Virus record (IMG/VR): IMGVR_UViG_3300031857_000972
Location: 1 to 29,896 of that record
DNA from: a virus
Lineage: Duplodnaviria; Caudoviricetes
DNA length: 29,896 bases
Reading direction: 5' to 3' (one strand)
Shown here one piece after another: positions 9,188 through 25,795 of this stretch; positions within the stretch are counted from its first letter, which is position 1; each line of letters starts with the position of its first letter. The position numbers and the translations under genes are program-made. Under the pieces are notes generated by a model that was not told the DNA's origin, searched no databases, and saw only the letters and a program-made list of their open reading frames with translations.

Positions 9188-9439
9188 ATGCCACGTAACT
9201 TCCGACAGGAATATGATCGATATCAAGGAAAGCCCGAACAAATAGCGAATCGCGCGAAACGCAACGCCGCACGTCGGGAGATGGAAAAGAAGGGCGCGGT
9301 ATCAAAGGGCGACGGGAAGGATGTGGATCACAAGACGCCCATCGCCAAAGGCGGTGGGAATGGAACAGGGAACCTGCGCGCAGTACCTAAGTCGGCGAAC
9401 CGATCGTTTCCTCGTACTAAACGCGCAGGTATGAAGTAA
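9188..9439 (+). CDS. Small HNH endonuclease
   Basis: SD AGGAG; DVDHKTPIAKGGGNGTGNLRAVPKSANR beta-beta-alpha-Me motif. Confidence 0.85.
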   Translation: MPRNFRQEYDRYQGKPEQIANRAKRNAARREMEKKGAVSKGDGKDVDHKTPIAKGGGNGTGNLRAVPKSANRSFPRTKRAGMK

Positions 9440-9598
9440 TCATTTACGGCGAGTGGCGGGGGTTTTCATAGGCTTTGCCTTACCCTTGCCAGTCATCTCT
9501 TTACCTACAGACATAGGCACGCCGACCTTCTTAGCGAAGGCCGGGCTATGCGCAACAGCCTGCATGAACTTCTCTTGCTTGGCTGACTTGGTAGGCAT
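9440..9598 (-). CDS. Small basic protein, 52 aa (not in ORF track)
   Basis: MPTKSAKQEKFMQAVAHSPAFAKKVGVPMSVGKEMTGKGKAKPMKTPATRRK; TAATG-coupled to the upstream ORF; its stop abuts the HNH stop. Confidence 0.8.
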   Translation of the reverse strand: MPTKSAKQEKFMQAVAHSPAFAKKVGVPMSVGKEMTGKGKAKPMKTPATRRK

Positions 9599-9765
9599 TA
9601 CTTCTTACCTTTCATCATCTTCTTTTCCATCATCTCGAATTTCTTCGACTCGCCTTTCTCGTGCTTCTTCATGGCCGACTTGGAAGCGTACTTCTCAGCG
9701 CCGCCATATTCTTTGACCATCTTGTTCTTTGCAGTCCGCTGACCGCGCATTGGCATACCTTTCAT
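9598..9765 (-). CDS. Small Lys/Met-rich protein, 55 aa (not in ORF track)
   Basis: MKGMPMRGQRTAKNKMVKEYGGAEKYASKSAMKKHEKGESKKFEMMEKKMMKGKK; SD AGGAG; ATGA overlap with the upstream ORF. Confidence 0.8.
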   Translation of the reverse strand: MKGMPMRGQRTAKNKMVKEYGGAEKYASKSAMKKHEKGESKKFEMMEKKMMKGKK

Positions 9766-9923
9766 TTCTTTCTCCTAGCTGCTCTCATGTTATCCACGAG
9801 ATTGGGGTAAGGACGGCCAGCCTTCTTTGCTGCTGACTTCGCAGCCGTCTTTTGCGAAGCCGATAGTTTCTTCGGTTTGCCCAACTCTTTGGGGCGGGGC
9901 TCTTCCCATACTGGTTTTTTCAT
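9762..9923 (-). CDS. Small basic protein, 53 aa (not in ORF track)
   Basis: MKKPVWEEPRPKELGKPKKLSASQKTAAKSAAKKAGRPYPNLVDNMRAARRKK; SD GGAGG 4 nt before the ATG. Confidence 0.82.
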   Translation of the reverse strand: MKKPVWEEPRPKELGKPKKLSASQKTAAKSAAKKAGRPYPNLVDNMRAARRKK

Positions 9924-9934
9924 ATATCCTCCAG

Positions 9935-10012
9935 CCAACAGGGGTGGGTGCTTACCGTCTTTCTCGTGACTGTGGTGCGTTCAGTCGTCCAGCAAACACC
10001 CACCCTTCTTGG
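9935..10012 (-). ncRNA. Putative intergenic structured RNA (long stem, internal loop, apical hairpin)
   Basis: 16 contiguous pairs (10005-9990 with 9942-9957, three G-U), basal CCAA/UUGG and apical GACUG/CAGUC; it fills the gap between a stop codon and the next SD. Confidence 0.6.
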
Positions 10013-10261
10013 TCAACATTTCCATTTTCTCAGCGCTTTATTTATTCTGCTATTAGGATCGTTCGCGGTTTTCGCACTGGTGTTTTTCTTTTTGTGTCCT
10101 TCCATCCGGGCACAGAATGAATCCCTGCGCTTACCACCTTCAGGTTGAGGGGCTTTGAGATTTCCACCCGTCGCTTTATTGTAGCTTGCTCTGCCCTTGG
10201 CGTTAAGTCCGCCGTTGGGGTTCTGGCCTTCCTTGCGCTGCCATGCCGGTGTCTTAGCCAT
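10013..10261 (-). CDS. Small basic phage protein (MAKTPAWQRKEG type, DUF6321-like)
   Basis: 82 aa, Lys/Arg-rich, with GGLNAKGRASY and RRDSFCARM motifs; TAATG-coupled to the giant gene. The family name is from memory. Confidence 0.8.
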   Translation of the reverse strand: MAKTPAWQRKEGQNPNGGLNAKGRASYNKATGGNLKAPQPEGGKRRDSFCARMEGHKKKNTSAKTANDPNSRINKALRKWKC

Positions 10262-13200
10262 TACTCTTCCTCTCCGCGAACTTCCGCGATTCGTTTATCC
10301 ATACGCTCTTGAAGTTTGTCCAACTCCGCATCTAGCGCTTCATAATCAGGATAGCCCTTGCGGTACTCGTCCTGCTTAGCTTTTTTCATAGCCGCTTTGA
10401 AATCGCGTTCAATACCTTTGACAACCTTGTCTTGAATAGCCAACGACTCATCGACGTTGTAGTCGTACAGCTTCAAACCCATCATACGGGCAAACACCAT
10501 GCTGCTAGGCTTGGCCCCGGTTATGCCTTCTTTCTCATCAATGATGTCTTTAACTTTTTTAATATTTGCACTGGATACGGCTGGTGGCATAGCGGTGTCG
10601 TAAGCAAACTTCGCCGAATTGAACAACTTGTCCCACTCAGAGTCCGTAGGCTTGTGTATATCTTTGCCACTATAAGGATCGACGCCTAGCAACAGTCCTG
10701 ATATTGCAGAGACGATCGGGCCGCTAGGTGTAATTACGCTGGGAATCCACGACTGTCCGAACAAACCATTAGGCAATCCTTTGGTTATAGACGCAAACGG
10801 TACATAGTCACCCAGCTTGTAGTACACCGGATTCTCGGCGTCGCCCATAAATGGGATACGAATGAACATATGAGGACCGAAGGGCGTACGCTCACGCATG
10901 TACTCAGGACCAGCTTTGCGAAGTTCATCGTCATCGCCATCACCCATCGAAGCCATAGCAGTTTCCAGCAGGTAATACGCCATCATGATGTTGGCGATCT
11001 TCCATGGCTGGTGCAAAGCAATACGGCCTAACACTGGGGCGATAGCGTAACCCCACGAGATAAACGGAATAAATGACTGTCGCAGAACCCGAACAGCTTT
11101 GGAGTCAATGTCGTAGTCCAAAAACGCTTTGCGGGCAAAGTCACCTGCGACACGCAGTTGCTCGGGCGTTGCTGTGGCAGTCTTTTCCTGCATCTGCAAG
11201 TCACCTGCTTTGGTAAGAAACGCCGCGAGTCGGAAGACGTTATCTTCAGCAGCATACAACTCGGTGGCGTAATGATCTGCTTTCTTGCCGATCTTCGTAG
11301 CCAGTTGCACAGCTTTCTGGGTTTTCGACTTCTCGTAGTTGGTAAACGCAGCAAGGCGCTTCATCAAAGAGTTGTCATTACCAGTGTCCATGTTGGTTTT
11401 CCAAGCGTCGTATAGAGCTTGCTTAACCTCAGAACTTGAGAAGTCACCTAGCATAGCGCCCGAGTTCATGAACGCAGACATCATGTCCAGTTCTTTACTA
11501 GACAGTGCTTTGGGATTGACTTCATATAGCGCGAAGATGCGCGCAGCGTTGCCCAGCGTAGCCATGGGAATGTCGTGCATCATGGCCAGCGTAATATTCG
11601 ACGCGACGTTCGTTACATGAGTGCCGGGGTTGTAGACCGTCTTGGACTTCTTGAACCAGCGCATACCAGTGTTGTATGCCTTCAGGTCAACCAGCGGACG
11701 ACGATCCGACATGTCGATCATGGCACTCCACACAGGACCGGGAATGTATTTGTTCGCCAGATCGCCATATGCAGTAGAGTTGGGCAGCTTCACCCAAGTG
11801 CCAGAGCGGCGGTACATACCGCGAATCTGTGGAGACTTGGACTCTTCTTGGCCGACATCCAGCACCAGAGACTCGTCAATTACGCGGCCAGTAAACTTCT
11901 GCACGTCTTCCAAGCTATTGAATGCTATGGTGTCGTCGGCTGCAATGGCTTTAGAAAACTGACGGCTGGCATAGTTGTTAGCTAATGCAGCCATGGTGTT
12001 GCGCATAGCATTTGCCAGTTCATCAATCTTGTTCTCTTCAAGCGCCTGTTTGGCTGTCATACTGGAAGAGAACTTGTAGCCTTTATCTGGGTCGTACTGA
12101 GATAGCCACCACTGACGAGTAGCGTCTACTTTGAAGCCATCAGGCGCACGGCGACCACGTTTCTCGAACTCGGAGATCGACATAAAGCCAGCGTGCTCAG
12201 GGCCCATATCGGGCTTTAAACCATCGCTCTTAAAGACTTGGTAGAAACGACCAGTCAGTTCTGGGTTGCCAGCCTCGTCTTTAGCGATCCAATCCATCGA
12301 ACCTTCGAGATTCAATTCGCCTTTGTGCTTTAGACCAAGGACGCTAGAGAGCTTGCGGGCACCGAACGTGGAACTAGCAACCTGCGCGCTCTTCGACGCA
12401 TATAGCAGCGACTCGGAAAACTTTCTGTTCTCAAAGAACGAACGCTCGGCAGCAGGTAGGTCAGCAACGTAGGTCTTGAACCAATCCATGACGTTGTCCG
12501 CTGTGCGGGCCATGATGCCTTTGTCTGCCATACCATCCAATGCTTTCTTGTTGCCGTCCATGTAATCGAACAGCGCACGCACTTGGTCAGCTGGGCGGTT
12601 CAGTACAAAGTTCGCCAACCGCTCCATCTGCTGATAACCAACGCTCTTGTTGACCTTGAAGTTCTCGATCTCTTCTTTGGTAGTCTCACCAGCACTGAAC
12701 GTAGAGTTGATATAAATCAAAAACCGCTCAAGCGCAGGAAAGTCTTTGCGGATAGCCTCAGCCATCTTACCAGTTACTTTTTGGAAGTTCTTAGATACAT
12801 TGTCATTCCAGTTCACCGCATCAAAGAAAGCCTTGGTGCTGATTGCTGCCGGCGCAACTCGTTTTGTGTACCCACGATAATCCTGCAGCGTAATACCAGA
12901 TGCTGTCTGCGTAGCTTTGTTCGACTGCACCGCTGCCTGCAGGGCTTTGCCGCTTAGCTGCTCAGGAATTTGCGCCTTGGTGGACTGCTCCAACAAATCC
13001 ATAGACGCTGACAACACATCGCTGGCGACATTCTCGCCAACACCCAACATGCGGCGCACGATGGCTTTGTACATCGCCCAGACAGAACGAATCGAGTCAA
13101 GGAACGACTTCGGCGCGTCGCCAGTCTTGATCTCCTGCATGGCGCGGCGGAACTCGTTTAGGGTAGCGGTGTAAGACACCAACTCCAGCACAGCGTCCAT

Positions 13201-16200
13201 GCCACGTTTCTGGTCAACAAGCTTTTGCAGAATCTGCTGAACTTCCAGAGCCTTGCCTTCCAGACCCTCAGCTTTCAGCGCGCGGTCAAGCGACTTCTGC
13301 AGCTGTGCGACAGCTGGAGCTTTAGGGTTCTGGTATACATACCACTGCAGCGCGGCGTGGAAAGCCTCGTGCAGAACGACCTCAGCCGACTGCTCTTCGC
13401 GGTTGATGTAGACCGTGTTGGTTTTGGGATCGTAGCGGGAGCCGGTCTTGTCAACGAATGCAATCTTTGCAGGATTGCTGGACTCAACCAGTGCGTCACG
13501 CAGCGCACGGGCAAGGACTCGACCCATGGGCGTAGTGTTAAAGCGCAGATACTGCAGCACGCCGGGCAGACCAGTGTACTTCTCACCTTTGCCTTGTGGG
13601 TTAACGTAGCCGTTCTTGGCCGCGTTTTCCAGCGCGGATACTGCTTTGCCCTTGGTCTTTTCTTGCATCTCAGACGATGGGCGAATCTGCTGGCTGCTGA
13701 CATCAGCCATGTCAGGCAGTTCCTTCATGAACGACTCGCGCTTCGCTGCAGCCCAGCCGGACGACAATGCAGTATCCAACGACTTGACCGCAGCAAGTGT
13801 CTCTGCCTTGGTTTTGCCGGGAGTTGCCAGTTTGCGTTGTGCAGCGTCTTTCACCACGCGGACAATCGCTTCTACGTTCTTGGCGTTGTTGTCTACCGAT
13901 TCGCCCAACCGGAACAAAGCGTTCTGCACATTCTTGGCCAATTCTTCCATCTTGGCGATACGCTCGTCGGCTTTCGCTTGGATGTTTTTCTTTACTTCAC
14001 GAGCAATATTAGCGCTGTAGTTAAGATAGGCGTCGTAGGCATTGCTAAACTCGCTAACGGCATCAACGACGCGCTGCTCTTTGCGACCGAACGCTTTAGC
14101 TACTTTGCCAGACTTGCGGAAGATGGCATCACGAATGCCCAATAGCGAACGCTGTGACAGCGAGACGCGCCCCGGAGCTTTGATCTGCTTAGCGCCCTGA
14201 ACTTCTGCGCCCAGCTTTTCCTTGTTGACTTCATTCAGGATGCCGGTAATACGCGCGGTGTCAGACTCGCGATCAGCCAGTTCAAGTTCTTCTTCCATAG
14301 CCTGTTCAATCGAACGAGCGATGGGCGTCTTTGCCGGCAGCGCAACTTTGGCTGGCGCGGCCTTTTTTGCTTTGCCCTTGGGGGCAGCGGCTGGTTGTAA
14401 AAGACCCCCAGCAGCCGGAGCTGCGGGGGAAACGGCAGGGGGGCTGCCGGAAGGAGCCGTTGTAGGAACAGGTGTAACCGCAGAAGTCAGAGCTGCTGGT
14501 CCAGCGGCTGCAGCTTGTTGAGCCGCACCAAGTCCCATCGCAGGGCGGGGGGTAGTTTGATCGACGGGGCCGCGCGCGGCCATGATTTGCGCCGGCGAGA
14601 GCGGCGGGGTACCACCCAGCGCTGCTTGTTGTGCTGGGGCCAAACCGCCCATAACTGGACGAGGCTGGCCTAGCGCTTCAGGGCCAGCAGCAAAAAGAGC
14701 ACGCTGGTCGCCTTGCAGCCCGGTAGAAACAGGAAAGCGCCAGATGCTAGGCGAGAGTGGGTCGTTCGCTGCCTGTCGGATTTCTGCCAGAATTTCTTTG
14801 GCTGTCTTGGGTTGTGAGTCAAGCAAGTCTGTGGCTGCAACGGGGTCAACGCTACGTGCTTGACGTTCCATGATCTCGCCCATCGTCAACTCACGTGGGG
14901 CTTGGGAGCCATCAGCTAGGGTTTCGTATGTAAACTGCCCACTAGGCTCGTTGAACGCTTCCTCGAACTGCTGGATATAAGATGCTTCATCTAGTCGTTC
15001 AGCGCCGATCCCCATGCGCTGCTCGATGCCGGCTCCAACTTCCAAAGCCTGCACAGCCTCTGTCATCCGGCGCAAAGCGTCGGTGCGGCGGTCTTCAAGG
15101 GCGATTTGCTCTTGTGTCCAACGACCAATGTCACGCGGATCGACACCTTGGCGCTGTGCTTCTACATTCACTGCAGCAATAGCTTGTGCGCGGACATCAC
15201 GCGGGACCAATGGGTCATCAGACAACGCCGTTTTTAGAGCAGATGCGTTATTCGATCGAGACACATGCGCGCCTAGCGCGAACGGCCCGAGTAGCAGTGT
15301 TAAGCCGGTGGCGCCCATGGCAGACTGTTTGGCAATATCGAACAAGTTCTCTTCTTTGCCGCCATAAGCGCGTTCCACCAACGAAGTGCCTACATCCTGT
15401 GCGATCTCGGTAGACGGCTGTACCAACAGATTTGTGGCCAACCCTTTTGTAAAGGGGCGCAGAACGCCAGTATCAGTCATCTCAGCAGCAACACCAGCGG
15501 TAGTGCCGCCACCTGCACGACCGAGCACAGGCTTGAACAATTTGCCGCCCACATAGGTAGCTGCAGCTTCGCCTGCGCCTTGAATCAATCCGGTGCGATA
15601 TGACGCTTGGCGCGCTTCCTCTTCGGACACACCTTGGGCGATTAATTTCTCGTAGGTGTCTTGCGCTTGCGACGTGCCGAACAACATACCAGCCGCAATA
15701 GGCATACCACCGGGTGCCATCGCCGCAGGAACAGTAGCAGCAATAGGCCCAACCGCACGAGCACCAGACAACAAAGTTTCCTGTACCAAACCACGACCAC
15801 GCATATCGGGCACATAGCTAGGTTCTGCAGCTGTGGCTTCTTCACGTAGTCTGCGGCCTGTCTCAGCAACAGCGCCGGACGGGGTGGGGCGTAGTCCTGT
15901 GGGGGCAGTAATCGCGCCGGGCTGCGCAGCGGCTTGCGCCTGCGCGCCAGCTTCAAAAGCTTCAGTAAGAAACGGCAGTTCGCGGGAGAGAAATTGCTGC
16001 CCTTGACCAATCATCTTGGGCACTTCTACGCGCAAACCGCCAACCAACTGCCTACCCATCTCCGAGACGAAGCCTCTGGGCTTTAGCCCCAGATAATCAG
16101 CAACATCTTCGAACGGTACGTTCTTGCGTTTGCTGTACTCACGTACAAGCTCGTCATCCGGCAACTCCCGCAGGTCCTGCGGGGCGGTTGAGCGTAGGTC

Positions 16201-16221
16201 TGCGAGAGAATAAATTGCCAT
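10261..16221 (-). CDS. Giant internal virion/DNA ejection protein, polyvalent-like, with HExxH domain
   Basis: 1986 aa; last of three ejection-type genes; Gly/Ala hydrophobic N-terminal region, Pro/Ala linker, VVLHEAFHAA and a helical C-terminal region. Confidence 0.75.
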   Translation of the reverse strand: MAIYSLADLRSTAPQDLRELPDDELVREYSKRKNVPFEDVADYLGLKPRGFVSEMGRQLVGGLRVEVPKMIGQGQQFLSRELPFLTEAFEAGAQAQAAAQPGAITAPTGLRPTPSGAVAETGRRLREEATAAEPSYVPDMRGRGLVQETLLSGARAVGPIAATVPAAMAPGGMPIAAGMLFGTSQAQDTYEKLIAQGVSEEEARQASYRTGLIQGAGEAAATYVGGKLFKPVLGRAGGGTTAGVAAEMTDTGVLRPFTKGLATNLLVQPSTEIAQDVGTSLVERAYGGKEENLFDIAKQSAMGATGLTLLLGPFALGAHVSRSNNASALKTALSDDPLVPRDVRAQAIAAVNVEAQRQGVDPRDIGRWTQEQIALEDRRTDALRRMTEAVQALEVGAGIEQRMGIGAERLDEASYIQQFEEAFNEPSGQFTYETLADGSQAPRELTMGEIMERQARSVDPVAATDLLDSQPKTAKEILAEIRQAANDPLSPSIWRFPVSTGLQGDQRALFAAGPEALGQPRPVMGGLAPAQQAALGGTPPLSPAQIMAARGPVDQTTPRPAMGLGAAQQAAAAGPAALTSAVTPVPTTAPSGSPPAVSPAAPAAGGLLQPAAAPKGKAKKAAPAKVALPAKTPIARSIEQAMEEELELADRESDTARITGILNEVNKEKLGAEVQGAKQIKAPGRVSLSQRSLLGIRDAIFRKSGKVAKAFGRKEQRVVDAVSEFSNAYDAYLNYSANIAREVKKNIQAKADERIAKMEELAKNVQNALFRLGESVDNNAKNVEAIVRVVKDAAQRKLATPGKTKAETLAAVKSLDTALSSGWAAAKRESFMKELPDMADVSSQQIRPSSEMQEKTKGKAVSALENAAKNGYVNPQGKGEKYTGLPGVLQYLRFNTTPMGRVLARALRDALVESSNPAKIAFVDKTGSRYDPKTNTVYINREEQSAEVVLHEAFHAALQWYVYQNPKAPAVAQLQKSLDRALKAEGLEGKALEVQQILQKLVDQKRGMDAVLELVSYTATLNEFRRAMQEIKTGDAPKSFLDSIRSVWAMYKAIVRRMLGVGENVASDVLSASMDLLEQSTKAQIPEQLSGKALQAAVQSNKATQTASGITLQDYRGYTKRVAPAAISTKAFFDAVNWNDNVSKNFQKVTGKMAEAIRKDFPALERFLIYINSTFSAGETTKEEIENFKVNKSVGYQQMERLANFVLNRPADQVRALFDYMDGNKKALDGMADKGIMARTADNVMDWFKTYVADLPAAERSFFENRKFSESLLYASKSAQVASSTFGARKLSSVLGLKHKGELNLEGSMDWIAKDEAGNPELTGRFYQVFKSDGLKPDMGPEHAGFMSISEFEKRGRRAPDGFKVDATRQWWLSQYDPDKGYKFSSSMTAKQALEENKIDELANAMRNTMAALANNYASRQFSKAIAADDTIAFNSLEDVQKFTGRVIDESLVLDVGQEESKSPQIRGMYRRSGTWVKLPNSTAYGDLANKYIPGPVWSAMIDMSDRRPLVDLKAYNTGMRWFKKSKTVYNPGTHVTNVASNITLAMMHDIPMATLGNAARIFALYEVNPKALSSKELDMMSAFMNSGAMLGDFSSSEVKQALYDAWKTNMDTGNDNSLMKRLAAFTNYEKSKTQKAVQLATKIGKKADHYATELYAAEDNVFRLAAFLTKAGDLQMQEKTATATPEQLRVAGDFARKAFLDYDIDSKAVRVLRQSFIPFISWGYAIAPVLGRIALHQPWKIANIMMAYYLLETAMASMGDGDDDELRKAGPEYMRERTPFGPHMFIRIPFMGDAENPVYYKLGDYVPFASITKGLPNGLFGQSWIPSVITPSGPIVSAISGLLLGVDPYSGKDIHKPTDSEWDKLFNSAKFAYDTAMPPAVSSANIKKVKDIIDEKEGITGAKPSSMVFARMMGLKLYDYNVDESLAIQDKVVKGIERDFKAAMKKAKQDEYRKGYPDYEALDAELDKLQERMDKRIAEVRGEEE

Positions 16222-18867: not shown

Positions 18868-19287
18868 TCAATGTCCTCTCTTTAGCCAGCGGCACTTATC
18901 TGCCCACATGACCAAGACCATCAAATCCGCCCCGGGGGCGGCATCCTTCATTACAAATTCTTCTTCAAACCCAAGCTTCTTGTCGAACGCAATAATGTGT
19001 GGTTCGTTTGTGGGCACCATACCTGTCAGCCGCTTGAGCCCTAACTGCCTGAAGCAGTAGTCGCCCACTACGAAAAAGAGGGAGAACAAGGTCTTACCCG
19101 GCTTGTCTATTGCTATGTGGCAAATTGCGTTGGCTCCGTTAATCTGATGGACGACAACGCCAGCAACCAACTGCCCGCCTTGCTCTACCCCAAAAGCGTT
19201 ATACCCTTCCCACTGCACCTGCTGCCCAACCCTGCCGGCAACCCAATCCGCCACTCTTTCTCGATCGTAAAGTACAAGGTCTGCCAT
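18868..19287 (-). CDS. GNAT-fold protein (positional equivalent of P22 gp14 / T7 gp13)
   Basis: FRQLGLKRLTGMVPTNE...KKLGFEEE is the RimJ/RimL-like C-terminal motif; it lies just upstream of the ejection genes. Confidence 0.8.
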   Translation of the reverse strand: MADLVLYDRERVADWVAGRVGQQVQWEGYNAFGVEQGGQLVAGVVVHQINGANAICHIAIDKPGKTLFSLFFVVGDYCFRQLGLKRLTGMVPTNEPHIIAFDKKLGFEEEFVMKDAAPGADLMVLVMWADKCRWLKRGH

Positions 19288-23949: not shown

Positions 23950-24256
23950 TACCACCCCAAGTAAGACCGGTCTTGACTGAGAAGCCAAGCACCATCAATC
24001 CGAGCGCAGCGATCAACCCCCAGATGATGCCCTTGCGAATAAGCTCTTGTCGCAACTTTGTCCAGAACTCAGTCTGGGCTTTAGCTGCAGCAATCATCTC
24101 ATCGTGATACCGGCGATGCCCAAGGGTATCCACATTCCCAAACTCATCTTCTGGAAATGCTCCTTTGAGAATTTTCAAATCTGCAAGGGCTTCGTCCAAT
24201 TGCGCCTCTATGTGGCTAAGAGTTCGTTCGGTTCGGTCTGTTCTGAGTTCTGGCAT
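23945..24256 (-). CDS. Small membrane protein (coiled coil plus C-terminal TM helix)
   Basis: GIIWGLIAALGLMVLGFSV hydrophobic segment; start overlaps the end of the glycosyltransferase. Confidence 0.7.
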   Translation of the reverse strand: MPELRTDRTERTLSHIEAQLDEALADLKILKGAFPEDEFGNVDTLGHRRYHDEMIAAAKAQTEFWTKLRQELIRKGIIWGLIAALGLMVLGFSVKTGLTWGGK

Positions 24257-25317
24257 TGCTCCATCTCCGCCTTCATTTTCAATAGGTTGGCGGCGATCCG
24301 CCCGTCATTCGGAGCCATTTTAGCGGCTGTTTCGCAATAAGCAAGAGCCTCTTCTTTGAGGTCTAGATGCCACGCTGCGATCGATGCAAGGTCGTACAAA
24401 GGCTCTTCCCATACCCGAGGGTCGCAGGTGTAGACCAGTTGCTTATTCTCTATCGTCAAACCCTTGGCAGCTGCTGTCAGACACCCACCCCAGTCCTGAC
24501 GGTTGTGGTAAGCCAAAGCGAGGTCGTGCCACGGCTCACGGGTGTTCGGGGCTTCGGCGCAAGCTTGTTTGTACCATTCCAGCGCTTCTGCCGGCTGCTG
24601 CAGGGCGTCATAAGCTTTCCCCAGTAAGCGCATGGCGTAGCACCGCTCGTTCGGCCAGTCGGCCTTGGGGTTGTCTAGGTACTTCAGAAGGGCTACAGCG
24701 GCCTCGCCCCACTTGGAGTAGAACGTCAGTTCCCGAGCGAAATAGAAGGCGTTGCGCGGGCAGTGGGGGTCTTCCTTGACGGCGAGGCGCAGCAGGTCAA
24801 GATACTGGCCACGGCTCTTGGTGGGGTCTGGCAAATGGGACACCAACAACATATCGCTGTGTGCGTAAACTTCCTCTATGCGACCATCCGGGCGCGGGTA
24901 TTCATGGACCGGGTGATGGAATCGATACCCATGCCTAGAAAATATTTTTTCGTAAAAGAAACTAATACCACAACCCCAATCAAACTTGTATCGAAGCCGG
25001 GTAGTATTCTCTTTCCACACCCGCTCAATTTCCTGTCGCCATCCGAGTTCCAATACTTCATCCAGATCAAGACTAATCACTATATCGATATCTTTTGGTA
25101 AAAGAGCAATAGCGGCGTTTCTTGCTAGGTCAAACCGCCACGGCGATATACAAATCTCATGAACAACAGTTTTAGGATGGCGTCGTGCGCGAGCAACCGT
25201 GCCGTCAGTAGAGCCAGTGTCAGCGATTAAAATTAAGTCGGCATCTGCAGCAGACGCGCAGAACCGGTCAACAAACTGTTCTTCATTTTTTGAAATAGCA
25301 TTAACGGCGATTTTCAT
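24208..25317 (-). CDS. GT2-family glycosyltransferase with C-terminal TPR repeats
   Basis: MKIAVNAISKNEE, DTGSTDGT, FDLARN, DxD motif LDLDE, HHPVHE, then TPR-like helices. I moved the start from 25365 to the ATG at 25317, where the GT2 fold begins. Confidence 0.9.
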   Translation of the reverse strand: MKIAVNAISKNEEQFVDRFCASAADADLILIADTGSTDGTVARARRHPKTVVHEICISPWRFDLARNAAIALLPKDIDIVISLDLDEVLELGWRQEIERVWKENTTRLRYKFDWGCGISFFYEKIFSRHGYRFHHPVHEYPRPDGRIEEVYAHSDMLLVSHLPDPTKSRGQYLDLLRLAVKEDPHCPRNAFYFARELTFYSKWGEAAVALLKYLDNPKADWPNERCYAMRLLGKAYDALQQPAEALEWYKQACAEAPNTREPWHDLALAYHNRQDWGGCLTAAAKGLTIENKQLVYTCDPRVWEEPLYDLASIAAWHLDLKEEALAYCETAAKMAPNDGRIAANLLKMKAEMEQCQNSEQTEPNELLAT

Positions 25318-25795
25318 CTCTAGCCCATTCTCCAAAGTATTTTTGTTCTGCTTCTTTTCTAGCAACTACTGCGTCTTCAAACCTAGTAAATCTCCCTAAG
25401 TTTATTTGCTTGTGGTTAACTTTTATACTAGCCCGCCATTTTCTATTTGCTATATCAAAAGACACCCCAACAACACCAGATTTGTTACGACGAGACTTAG
25501 GTAGATTTTTCCCATTTTGTGCGTTAGTAGCTTCACGCAAATTATCTATTCTGTTGTCTGTTTTATCTCCGTTAATATGGTCTATCTGCTCTAAGGGCCA
25601 AACACCGTGGTGTAGCACCCATGCAATTCTATGGGCTTGGAACCGCCTACCGTTGATTAAAACCCCTCTGTAGCCACTATGAAGCAAAGTACCAGCAGGG
25701 GCTTTTTTTATCTTCCCTTTCCCTTTTGCTACCCAATACAGATGTCCTGTTTCTGGGCAATACCGTAGGAGTTGCTGAAGTTCATGTATATTCAT
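25301..25795 (-). CDS. HNH-AP2 free-standing homing endonuclease
   Basis: AHRIAW, IDHINGDKTDNRIDNLREAT..QN, then AP2-like SGVVGV...KWRASI...LGRF...AVVAR; low GC (38% in sampled line 25441-25500). Confidence 0.92.
   Translation of the reverse strand: MNIHELQQLLRYCPETGHLYWVAKGKGKIKKAPAGTLLHSGYRGVLINGRRFQAHRIAWVLHHGVWPLEQIDHINGDKTDNRIDNLREATNAQNGKNLPKSRRNKSGVVGVSFDIANRKWRASIKVNHKQINLGRFTRFEDAVVARKEAEQKYFGEWARDENRR

Follow-up and report, generated by a model that had tools for sequence, protein, structure and literature searches.

In most tailed phages, ions and polyamines are believed to neutralize the packaged DNA; the internal proteins of T4 are the main protein exception. Protamines and the adenovirus proteins VII and mu, likened by description only to the four proteins A–D treated here, share with them small size, basic charge and a proposed passage together with the genome; in adenovirus, the precursors are cleaved at sites of Gly-Gly type. 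The T4 internal proteins IPI–IPIII resemble the cassette described below in being a small, basic and variable gene set. Lysines of the T4 internal proteins are reported to touch packaged DNA (PMC3012670), and the head proteases of T4, phiKZ and SPN3US to cleave after Glu (PMC5694885). The fusellovirus SSV1 carries VP2, which was purified from virions and is reported to be DNA-binding, deletable and patchily distributed (PMC3367457, PMC9608457).

The window, i.e., the whole stretch of 29,896 nt that was analyzed, is a fragment of a freshwater tailed phage, of which 33 proteins were scanned. Replication genes (DNA polymerase A, exonuclease, VRR-NUC, SNF2 helicase and DUF927 primase) occupy the plus strand up to position 9439, and the lysis, tail and ejection-block genes occupy the minus strand down to position 9440. 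The tail/ejection block is closed by a giant gene of 1986 aa (10261..16221, minus strand) with one HExxH at residue 951. Its product matched nothing in Pfam or PHROG at E<0.05; the genomic position points to an ejection or polyvalent role, and LPD38 and ART-PolyVal were found in the counterpart of this gene in genome G006. The tail block also encodes a TPR-bearing glycosyltransferase (24208-25365), and the ejection block a GNAT acetyltransferase-like protein (18868-19287), for which Lys-rich virion proteins are conceivable substrates. The contig G001, near-identical to the window and about 60% complete, contributes the major head gene and a scaffold-like gene; its head module includes a Ferritin/Dps-like gene (phrog_858, L286:756-1136).

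Behind the giant gene, the minus strand encodes A (82 aa, 10013..10261), B (53 aa, 9762..9923), C (55 aa, 9598..9765) and D (52 aa, 9440..9598). The K+R versus D+E counts are 20/5, 17/4, 18/6 (with 9 Met) and 13/2, respectively, the individual K/R counts are 13/7, 12/5, 16/2 and 11/2, and the pI values span 10.2-10.9. The ORF sizes, linking junctions and charge counts are all as given in the preliminary description of this locus, which had also regarded the four genes as tightly linked. The overlaps bear this out at three junctions, with TAATG at 10263-10259 (giant gene/A), ATGA at 9765-9762 (B/C) and TAATG at 9600-9596 (C/D), but not at the fourth, where 89 nt lie between A and B, which are thus uncoupled. 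This gap is occupied by a hairpin (9935..10012, minus strand; -37.7 kcal/mol, z -4.5), which none of 200 shuffles equaled in stability. It stops just ahead of the Shine-Dalgarno-like GGAGGA of B (9927..9932, minus strand), itself only 3 nt before the ATG, and is missing in close relatives where A directly abuts B (L005, L277, L278). At the same site, locus L276 instead carries a 208-aa gene. The hairpin could be a processing site, a stabilizer or an insertion remnant.

On its other side, the cassette borders a basic HNH-like gene of 83 aa (phrog_4590; 9188..9439, plus strand), the final gene of the replication arm, which meets D tail-to-tail with zero gap; a search for a terminator-like site at this convergent junction (9439/9440) found none. 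The N-terminal motif of the HNH-like gene also occurs fused into the DUF6321 proteins P0011 and L320.

Frame-preserving relatives were recovered for all four ORFs. For A, B and D, they are estimated to comprise 8,600, 3,100 and 750 stored viral stretches, respectively; for C, 31 viral loci were recovered. Contigs X9 and X11, from a study that bears no flag as the source, show 0-1 differences from the window over the A-B stretch. Computed with the six closest relatives, dN/dS was 0.05-0.14 for A, 0.06-0.18 for B and 0.12-0.22 for D; for C it was 0.04-0.06, computable for two of the six. In every pair, pN was below pS (209/209 for A, 81/81 for B, 28/28 for C, 107/107 for D), the pairs being non-independent and selected by protein similarity. 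Because such relatives exist and pN lies far below pS, A–D are real genes under purifying selection, as the tight spacing had initially led one to suppose.

By its sequence, A is a full member of DUF6321 (PF19846; E 7e-21, 75 bits against a cut-off of 28.5, model positions 2-72 of 72). It is present in 546 phage records, chiefly of cyanophages and SAR11 phages, and is 80-87% identical to the SAR11 or cyanobacterial phage versions. Its relatives in T4-like cyanophages, i.e., the T4-GC119 cluster (S-SM1, S-SCSM1 gp29, P-SSM2_123), share the family, the late-gene context and the predicted fold (TM ~0.9). A small four-helix fold is predicted for A with confidence (pLDDT 87.5). The model had no Foldseek match in the PDB at E<=0.001 and no chain at Z>=5 (best Z 4.2), which is no proof that the predicted fold is new. 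In the genomes of MinM2 and Greip, the DUF6321 genes (L002:8001-8246; H7) are labeled 'RecA-like recombination protein', apparently a misannotation.

B belongs to phrog_34011, and in its model (pLDDT 90.1) two predicted helices flank an invariant Pro/Asn/Asp motif. Histone-like rows for B among the viral models searched (E>=1.9, 26-29 columns) were dismissed as short-helix matches. C is Lys/Met-rich and has no family in Pfam or PHROG. D belongs to phrog_16759 and matches 132 records, including phiKZ gp165.1, EL, 201phi2-1 and phAPEC6-like phages, as well as the N-termini of two PHROGs labeled 'virion structural protein'. Its core is 60% identical to phiKZ gp165.1 over 42 aa and 60-67% identical to the versions in Pseudomonas and enterobacterial jumbo phages; it is shared with phiKZ gp165.1 (phrog_16759) and phAPEC6 gp161c (phrog_25121), and in fusions it stands at the N-terminus. 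In the ESM Atlas, the query modules formed clusters of their own families; DUF3008, a small basic bacterial family, occurs in 18% of the members of clusters near D, a possible link. A C-terminal Cys was noted in 104 of 120 long D-type proteins (P0123-P0242) and in most DUF6321 proteins; the latter also have an inner Cys, and these residues might serve in disulfide bonding or metal binding. The full-text literature search returned no paper naming DUF6321 or gp165.1 and no printed function; one text match to phiKZ with '165.1' was an accession-number coincidence.

The earlier idea of protamine-like peptides fits these families poorly. Protamines have Arg tracts, whereas A–D are Lys-rich with conserved uncharged motifs and are not Arg-dominated low-complexity sequences. 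The conserved positions of the A–D profiles are mostly uncharged, the invariant residues being mainly W, G, P, N, D and Q, and the models of A and B are helical.

The composition of the cassette is variable. Within the fetched flanks (at most 6 kb, many contigs being short), A co-occurs with D in 75 of 80 loci, with B in 59 of 80 and with C in 20 of 31, in varying order. In four scans under the same flank limits, the complete quartet was recovered at 1 of 271 loci, from the near-identical contig, and the idea of a fixed four-gene unit was discarded. That of an obligate tie to the giant gene was discarded as well: a 1000-codon ORF directly precedes the first module in only 12 of the 152 loci that extend 3.3 kb or more upstream. 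The preliminary description had proposed that the set is dedicated and coupled to the giant protein; this does not hold as a rule, as the modules swap and relocate, and the conservation and co-occurrence analyses revealed conserved modules but a set that varies among relatives.

Five relatives with the giant gene illustrate this variability: one reads A (frameshifted)-insert-B-D, with C supplied by the overlapping locus L039; two carry A-B-C and A-B-F-C; a fourth has A and another module before the contig ends; and the fifth bears a row of seven genes that shares with the others only D, an ORF resembling C and one weakly resembling DUF6321. In the near-identical G001 (L276:6940-7723), a deletion frameshifts A and a 208-aa gene is inserted, which may be an assembly error. 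This insert has no PHROG family, and the same gene family occurs within the G006 cassette (L385:13504-14154). A provisional DUF5872 label for modules in L279 and L280 was dropped, since Pfam did not confirm it; the module is phrog_17747. Downstream of the basic cassette, L277 (8948-9259) and L278 (9128-9439) encode a very acidic protein of 103 aa, which might be a DNA mimic or a chaperone.

The position of the cassette in the genome also shifts. In 65-kb relatives that share the replication module, it lies behind the major capsid gene, and the cassette of the T7-like P-SCSP1u is placed likewise. In T4-like cyanophages, DUF6321 genes are often found beside or between terminase genes. Unlike D, a cassette member, gp165.1 of phiKZ is a lone reversed gene outside any cassette.

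One module absent from the window, F, may link the cassette to VP2; in L005 and L278, two of the closest relatives, it separates B from C. F is 40% identical to ORF9 of Thermus virus IN93 over 97% of its length, and in a single pairwise hhalign comparison its profile aligned with IN93 ORF9 at 97.1% over 58 columns. IN93 ORF9 itself lies above the cut-off of the VP2 family (PF25632, E 1.6e-14), as does phiFa_82. The direct Pfam VP2 rows of F, 17 of 21 listed, all fall under the cut-off (E 0.007-0.5), and the window's own A–D have no match to PF25632 at E<=0.05. Fusellovirus VP2 differs from the window in that A–D are unmatched and F occurs only in relatives. Points of likeness are the small size, basic charge and patchy occurrence of VP2, a dispensable protein of the virion for which DNA binding is reported, and the alignment of F to IN93 ORF9. 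These traits of VP2 match the behavior of the cassette.

The modules occur both as free genes and within longer proteins, where their placement is regular. Among the best 120 of 6,015 A-containing longer proteins, A is C-terminal in 117. Of the 119 that could be anchored (one was unanchored), 112 have Gly-Gly ahead of A, against a background of 6.8%. A T4-type query yielded 80 loci and 77 distinct proteins (3 unparsed), 74 of them fused; here, Glu lies within five residues of the junction in 72 of 74 and Gly-Gly in none. This query itself began with the Glu motif; therefore, ten isolates hand-picked from the search with the window's own A were checked, and the Glu junction was present in all nine T4-like isolates, the tenth, MaMV-CH02, being free-standing. 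In its minimal fused forms, A follows a leader of 10-25 aa ending in Glu (Syn1_112, L339, L358, L361). A T4 capsid-targeting-like leader pattern matches only 6 of 63 complete fusions. In long D forms, D is N-terminal in 117 of 118 anchored proteins, and Gly-Gly follows it after 12-30 aa in 115 of 118. D as a universal protease-removed tag was rejected, as D genes of jumbo phages are free-standing; of six such free genes in phiKZ-like phages, three (AH04, SXP01, Moabite) stop without a Glu-site extension.

In three complete 65-kb relatives, the Gly-Gly motif is enriched about fourfold over shuffles (17 vs 3.7, 16 vs 4.3 and 15 vs 4.1). Most occurrences fall in proteins of the cassette and the ejection block, and capsid, portal and scaffold have none. 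In the window phage it is at chance (2 vs 2.0), and so it is in MinM2. The pattern was derived post hoc from the data, overlapping stretches repeat a few counts, and the carriers share descent. A literature search with AxGG spellings of the motif returned unrelated papers only. From the junction sequences we infer that the fused forms may be cut there. No Gly-Gly protease was recognized among 30 late proteins, the giant protein giving only weak HExxH rows. As a side observation, an ejection-block protein of Gly-Gly-type relatives ends in a strongly conserved domain of about 90 aa straight after Gly-Gly (L386:9990-11726; L392:9002-10288). This domain has no Pfam match and is a candidate cutter or docking domain; lambda-like tape measure proteins have a similar arrangement.

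Compared with these fused forms, the window phage stands apart. The DUF6321 protein of T4-like phages is usually the final module of a longer protein, whereas A of the window is free, with neither leader nor Glu junction. None of A–D has a capsid-targeting leader ending in Glu; each starts directly at the conserved module. The T4-like carriers of A thus share a T4 trait, the Glu junction, some of them with a short leader, while A–D have no sequence match to IPI–IPIII and no leader. T4 has gp21 processing; no head protease was recognized among the 33 window proteins or 11 head-region proteins of G001, the contig of about 60% completeness.

Published proteomics places some carriers of the modules in virions. 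T4-GC119, which occurs in 15 of 16 cyanophages surveyed, was detected with 13 peptides in S-SM1 virions (PMC3037559, Table S8) and was undetected in those of Syn9 (PMC3037559). The record of S-SCSM1 gp29 is labeled 'virion protein'; the corresponding paper includes virion mass spectrometry, and a search of its supplement gave no match for gp29 (PMC9602691). In phAPEC6, gp161c, with D at its N-terminus, is listed among the virion proteins with 6 peptides (PMC7247149). The carrier peptides detected may derive from regions outside modules A or D. Free-standing modules were not found in the virion lists examined. The record of 201phi2-1 gp383 (D) has no virion-MS label, unlike its neighbor gp382, nor has that of RaK2 ORF156; the sections consulted of the P-SCSP1u papers (PMC10575957, PMC9860041) contain no virion mass spectrometry. 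In phiKZ-infected cells, gp165.1 is translated at low abundance (4 peptides; log10 6.98 against the authors' threshold of 8) (PMC10914614). It was not found in the portion of the phiKZ tables examined from PMC10449902, and the main text of bioRxiv 2024.03.24.586471 does not mention gp165.

Virion proteomics of the fused relatives, a putative VP2-family member of the cassette and the late-operon position lend indirect support to nucleic-acid binders that are packaged or co-ejected, and we consider A–D to be probably head cargo; if so, DNA binding would probably be their main job. The full reading, to which we assign a probability of about 0.5, is that A–D are head-packed, predicted DNA-binding, accessory and partly redundant core proteins drawn from a swappable cassette. 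Under this model, translational coupling of A–D to the last virion gene would make their products late, and these would be loaded into the prohead, where lysines on small folded scaffolds could bind the packaged DNA; the modules would then leave the head with the DNA and enter the cell, for which T4 provides a precedent (PMC3012670). Fused forms would be cut by the head protease, after Glu in T4-like phages and at Gly-Gly in the 65-kb relatives, and the single genes of the window phage would be the pre-cut equivalents. Redundancy among modules would account for the swapping, and hosts spanning cyanobacteria, SAR11, Pseudomonas and enterobacteria fit a universal ligand. The model offers no loading route for the leaderless modules of this phage.

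The same cargo could instead act after injection, each module binding a specific host protein as T4 IPI* does in blocking GmrSD, with the basic charge merely helping it to ride along with the DNA. The invariant uncharged motifs and the defined folds modeled for A and B speak for such targets, as does the fusion of A to ART-PolyVal-domain proteins in 4 of the 120 best long matches, and the rapid swapping at one locus recalls the diverse internal proteins of T-even phages (PMC3012670). We nevertheless regard this as unlikely, given that A remains 80-87% and the D core 60-67% identical across differing hosts. Arms-race proteins directed against host defenses usually diverge fast and track the host. 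The neighborhood of terminase genes in T4-like cyanophages raises another option, namely late non-virion or transient assembly factors, helping in DNA packaging or in the prohead and cleared before maturation. Such a role would agree with the missing virion label of 201phi2-1 gp383, with the failure to detect T4-GC119 in Syn9 virions (PMC3037559) and with the solubility of gp165.1 in infected-cell lysate (PMC10914614), but the carriers detected in S-SM1 (PMC3037559) and phAPEC6 (PMC7247149) virions and the 'virion protein' label of S-SCSM1 make it quite improbable. Against it also counts that small Lys-rich proteins are easily missed in trypsin workflows.

The preliminary description had also considered ribosomal-protein-like peptides acting on host RNA; for a role on host rRNA or in translation, size, charge and conservation across hosts could be cited. 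This now appears very improbable: the A, B and C profiles had no match to PDB sequences at E<=10 and D had two chance rows. In the published phiKZ gradient data, which concern D only, gp165.1 is confined to fractions 1-3 with zero in heavier ones and is absent from the nine phiKZ ribosome-fraction proteins (PMC10914614), an argument that is weaker because of its low abundance. Near-neutral passengers drifting in and out of the operon end would explain the gain and loss of modules among close relatives and the frameshifted A with its 208-aa insert in the near-identical L276, itself a possible assembly error. Strong purifying selection by dN/dS and the occurrence of T4-GC119 in 15 of 16 cyanophages (PMC3037559) leave hardly any room for this explanation.

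Together, these results indicate that A–D are likely a further case of small basic virion cargo, a class previously known. More tentatively, and with doubt prevailing, tailed phages may share a cross-realm, plug-and-play kit of core proteins, in which modules of 50-80 aa are used singly or as polyproteins and served by lineage-specific head proteases (a Glu-cutter in T4-like phages, an undescribed Gly-Gly-cutter in the 65-kb relatives), with one module homologous to the DNA-binding VP2 of archaeal fuselloviruses and one present in phiKZ. Exact cut sites and a Gly-Gly protease are predicted from the junction motifs, and the question becomes testable in cultured phages, i.e., with phiKZ gp165.1, P-SCSP1u and SAR11 phages. 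If A–D are head cargo, hypothetical proteins that are very common in aquatic phages would gain a role: DUF6321 by itself is estimated to match some 8,600 stored viral stretches, and one survey has it in 15 of 16 cyanomyoviruses.
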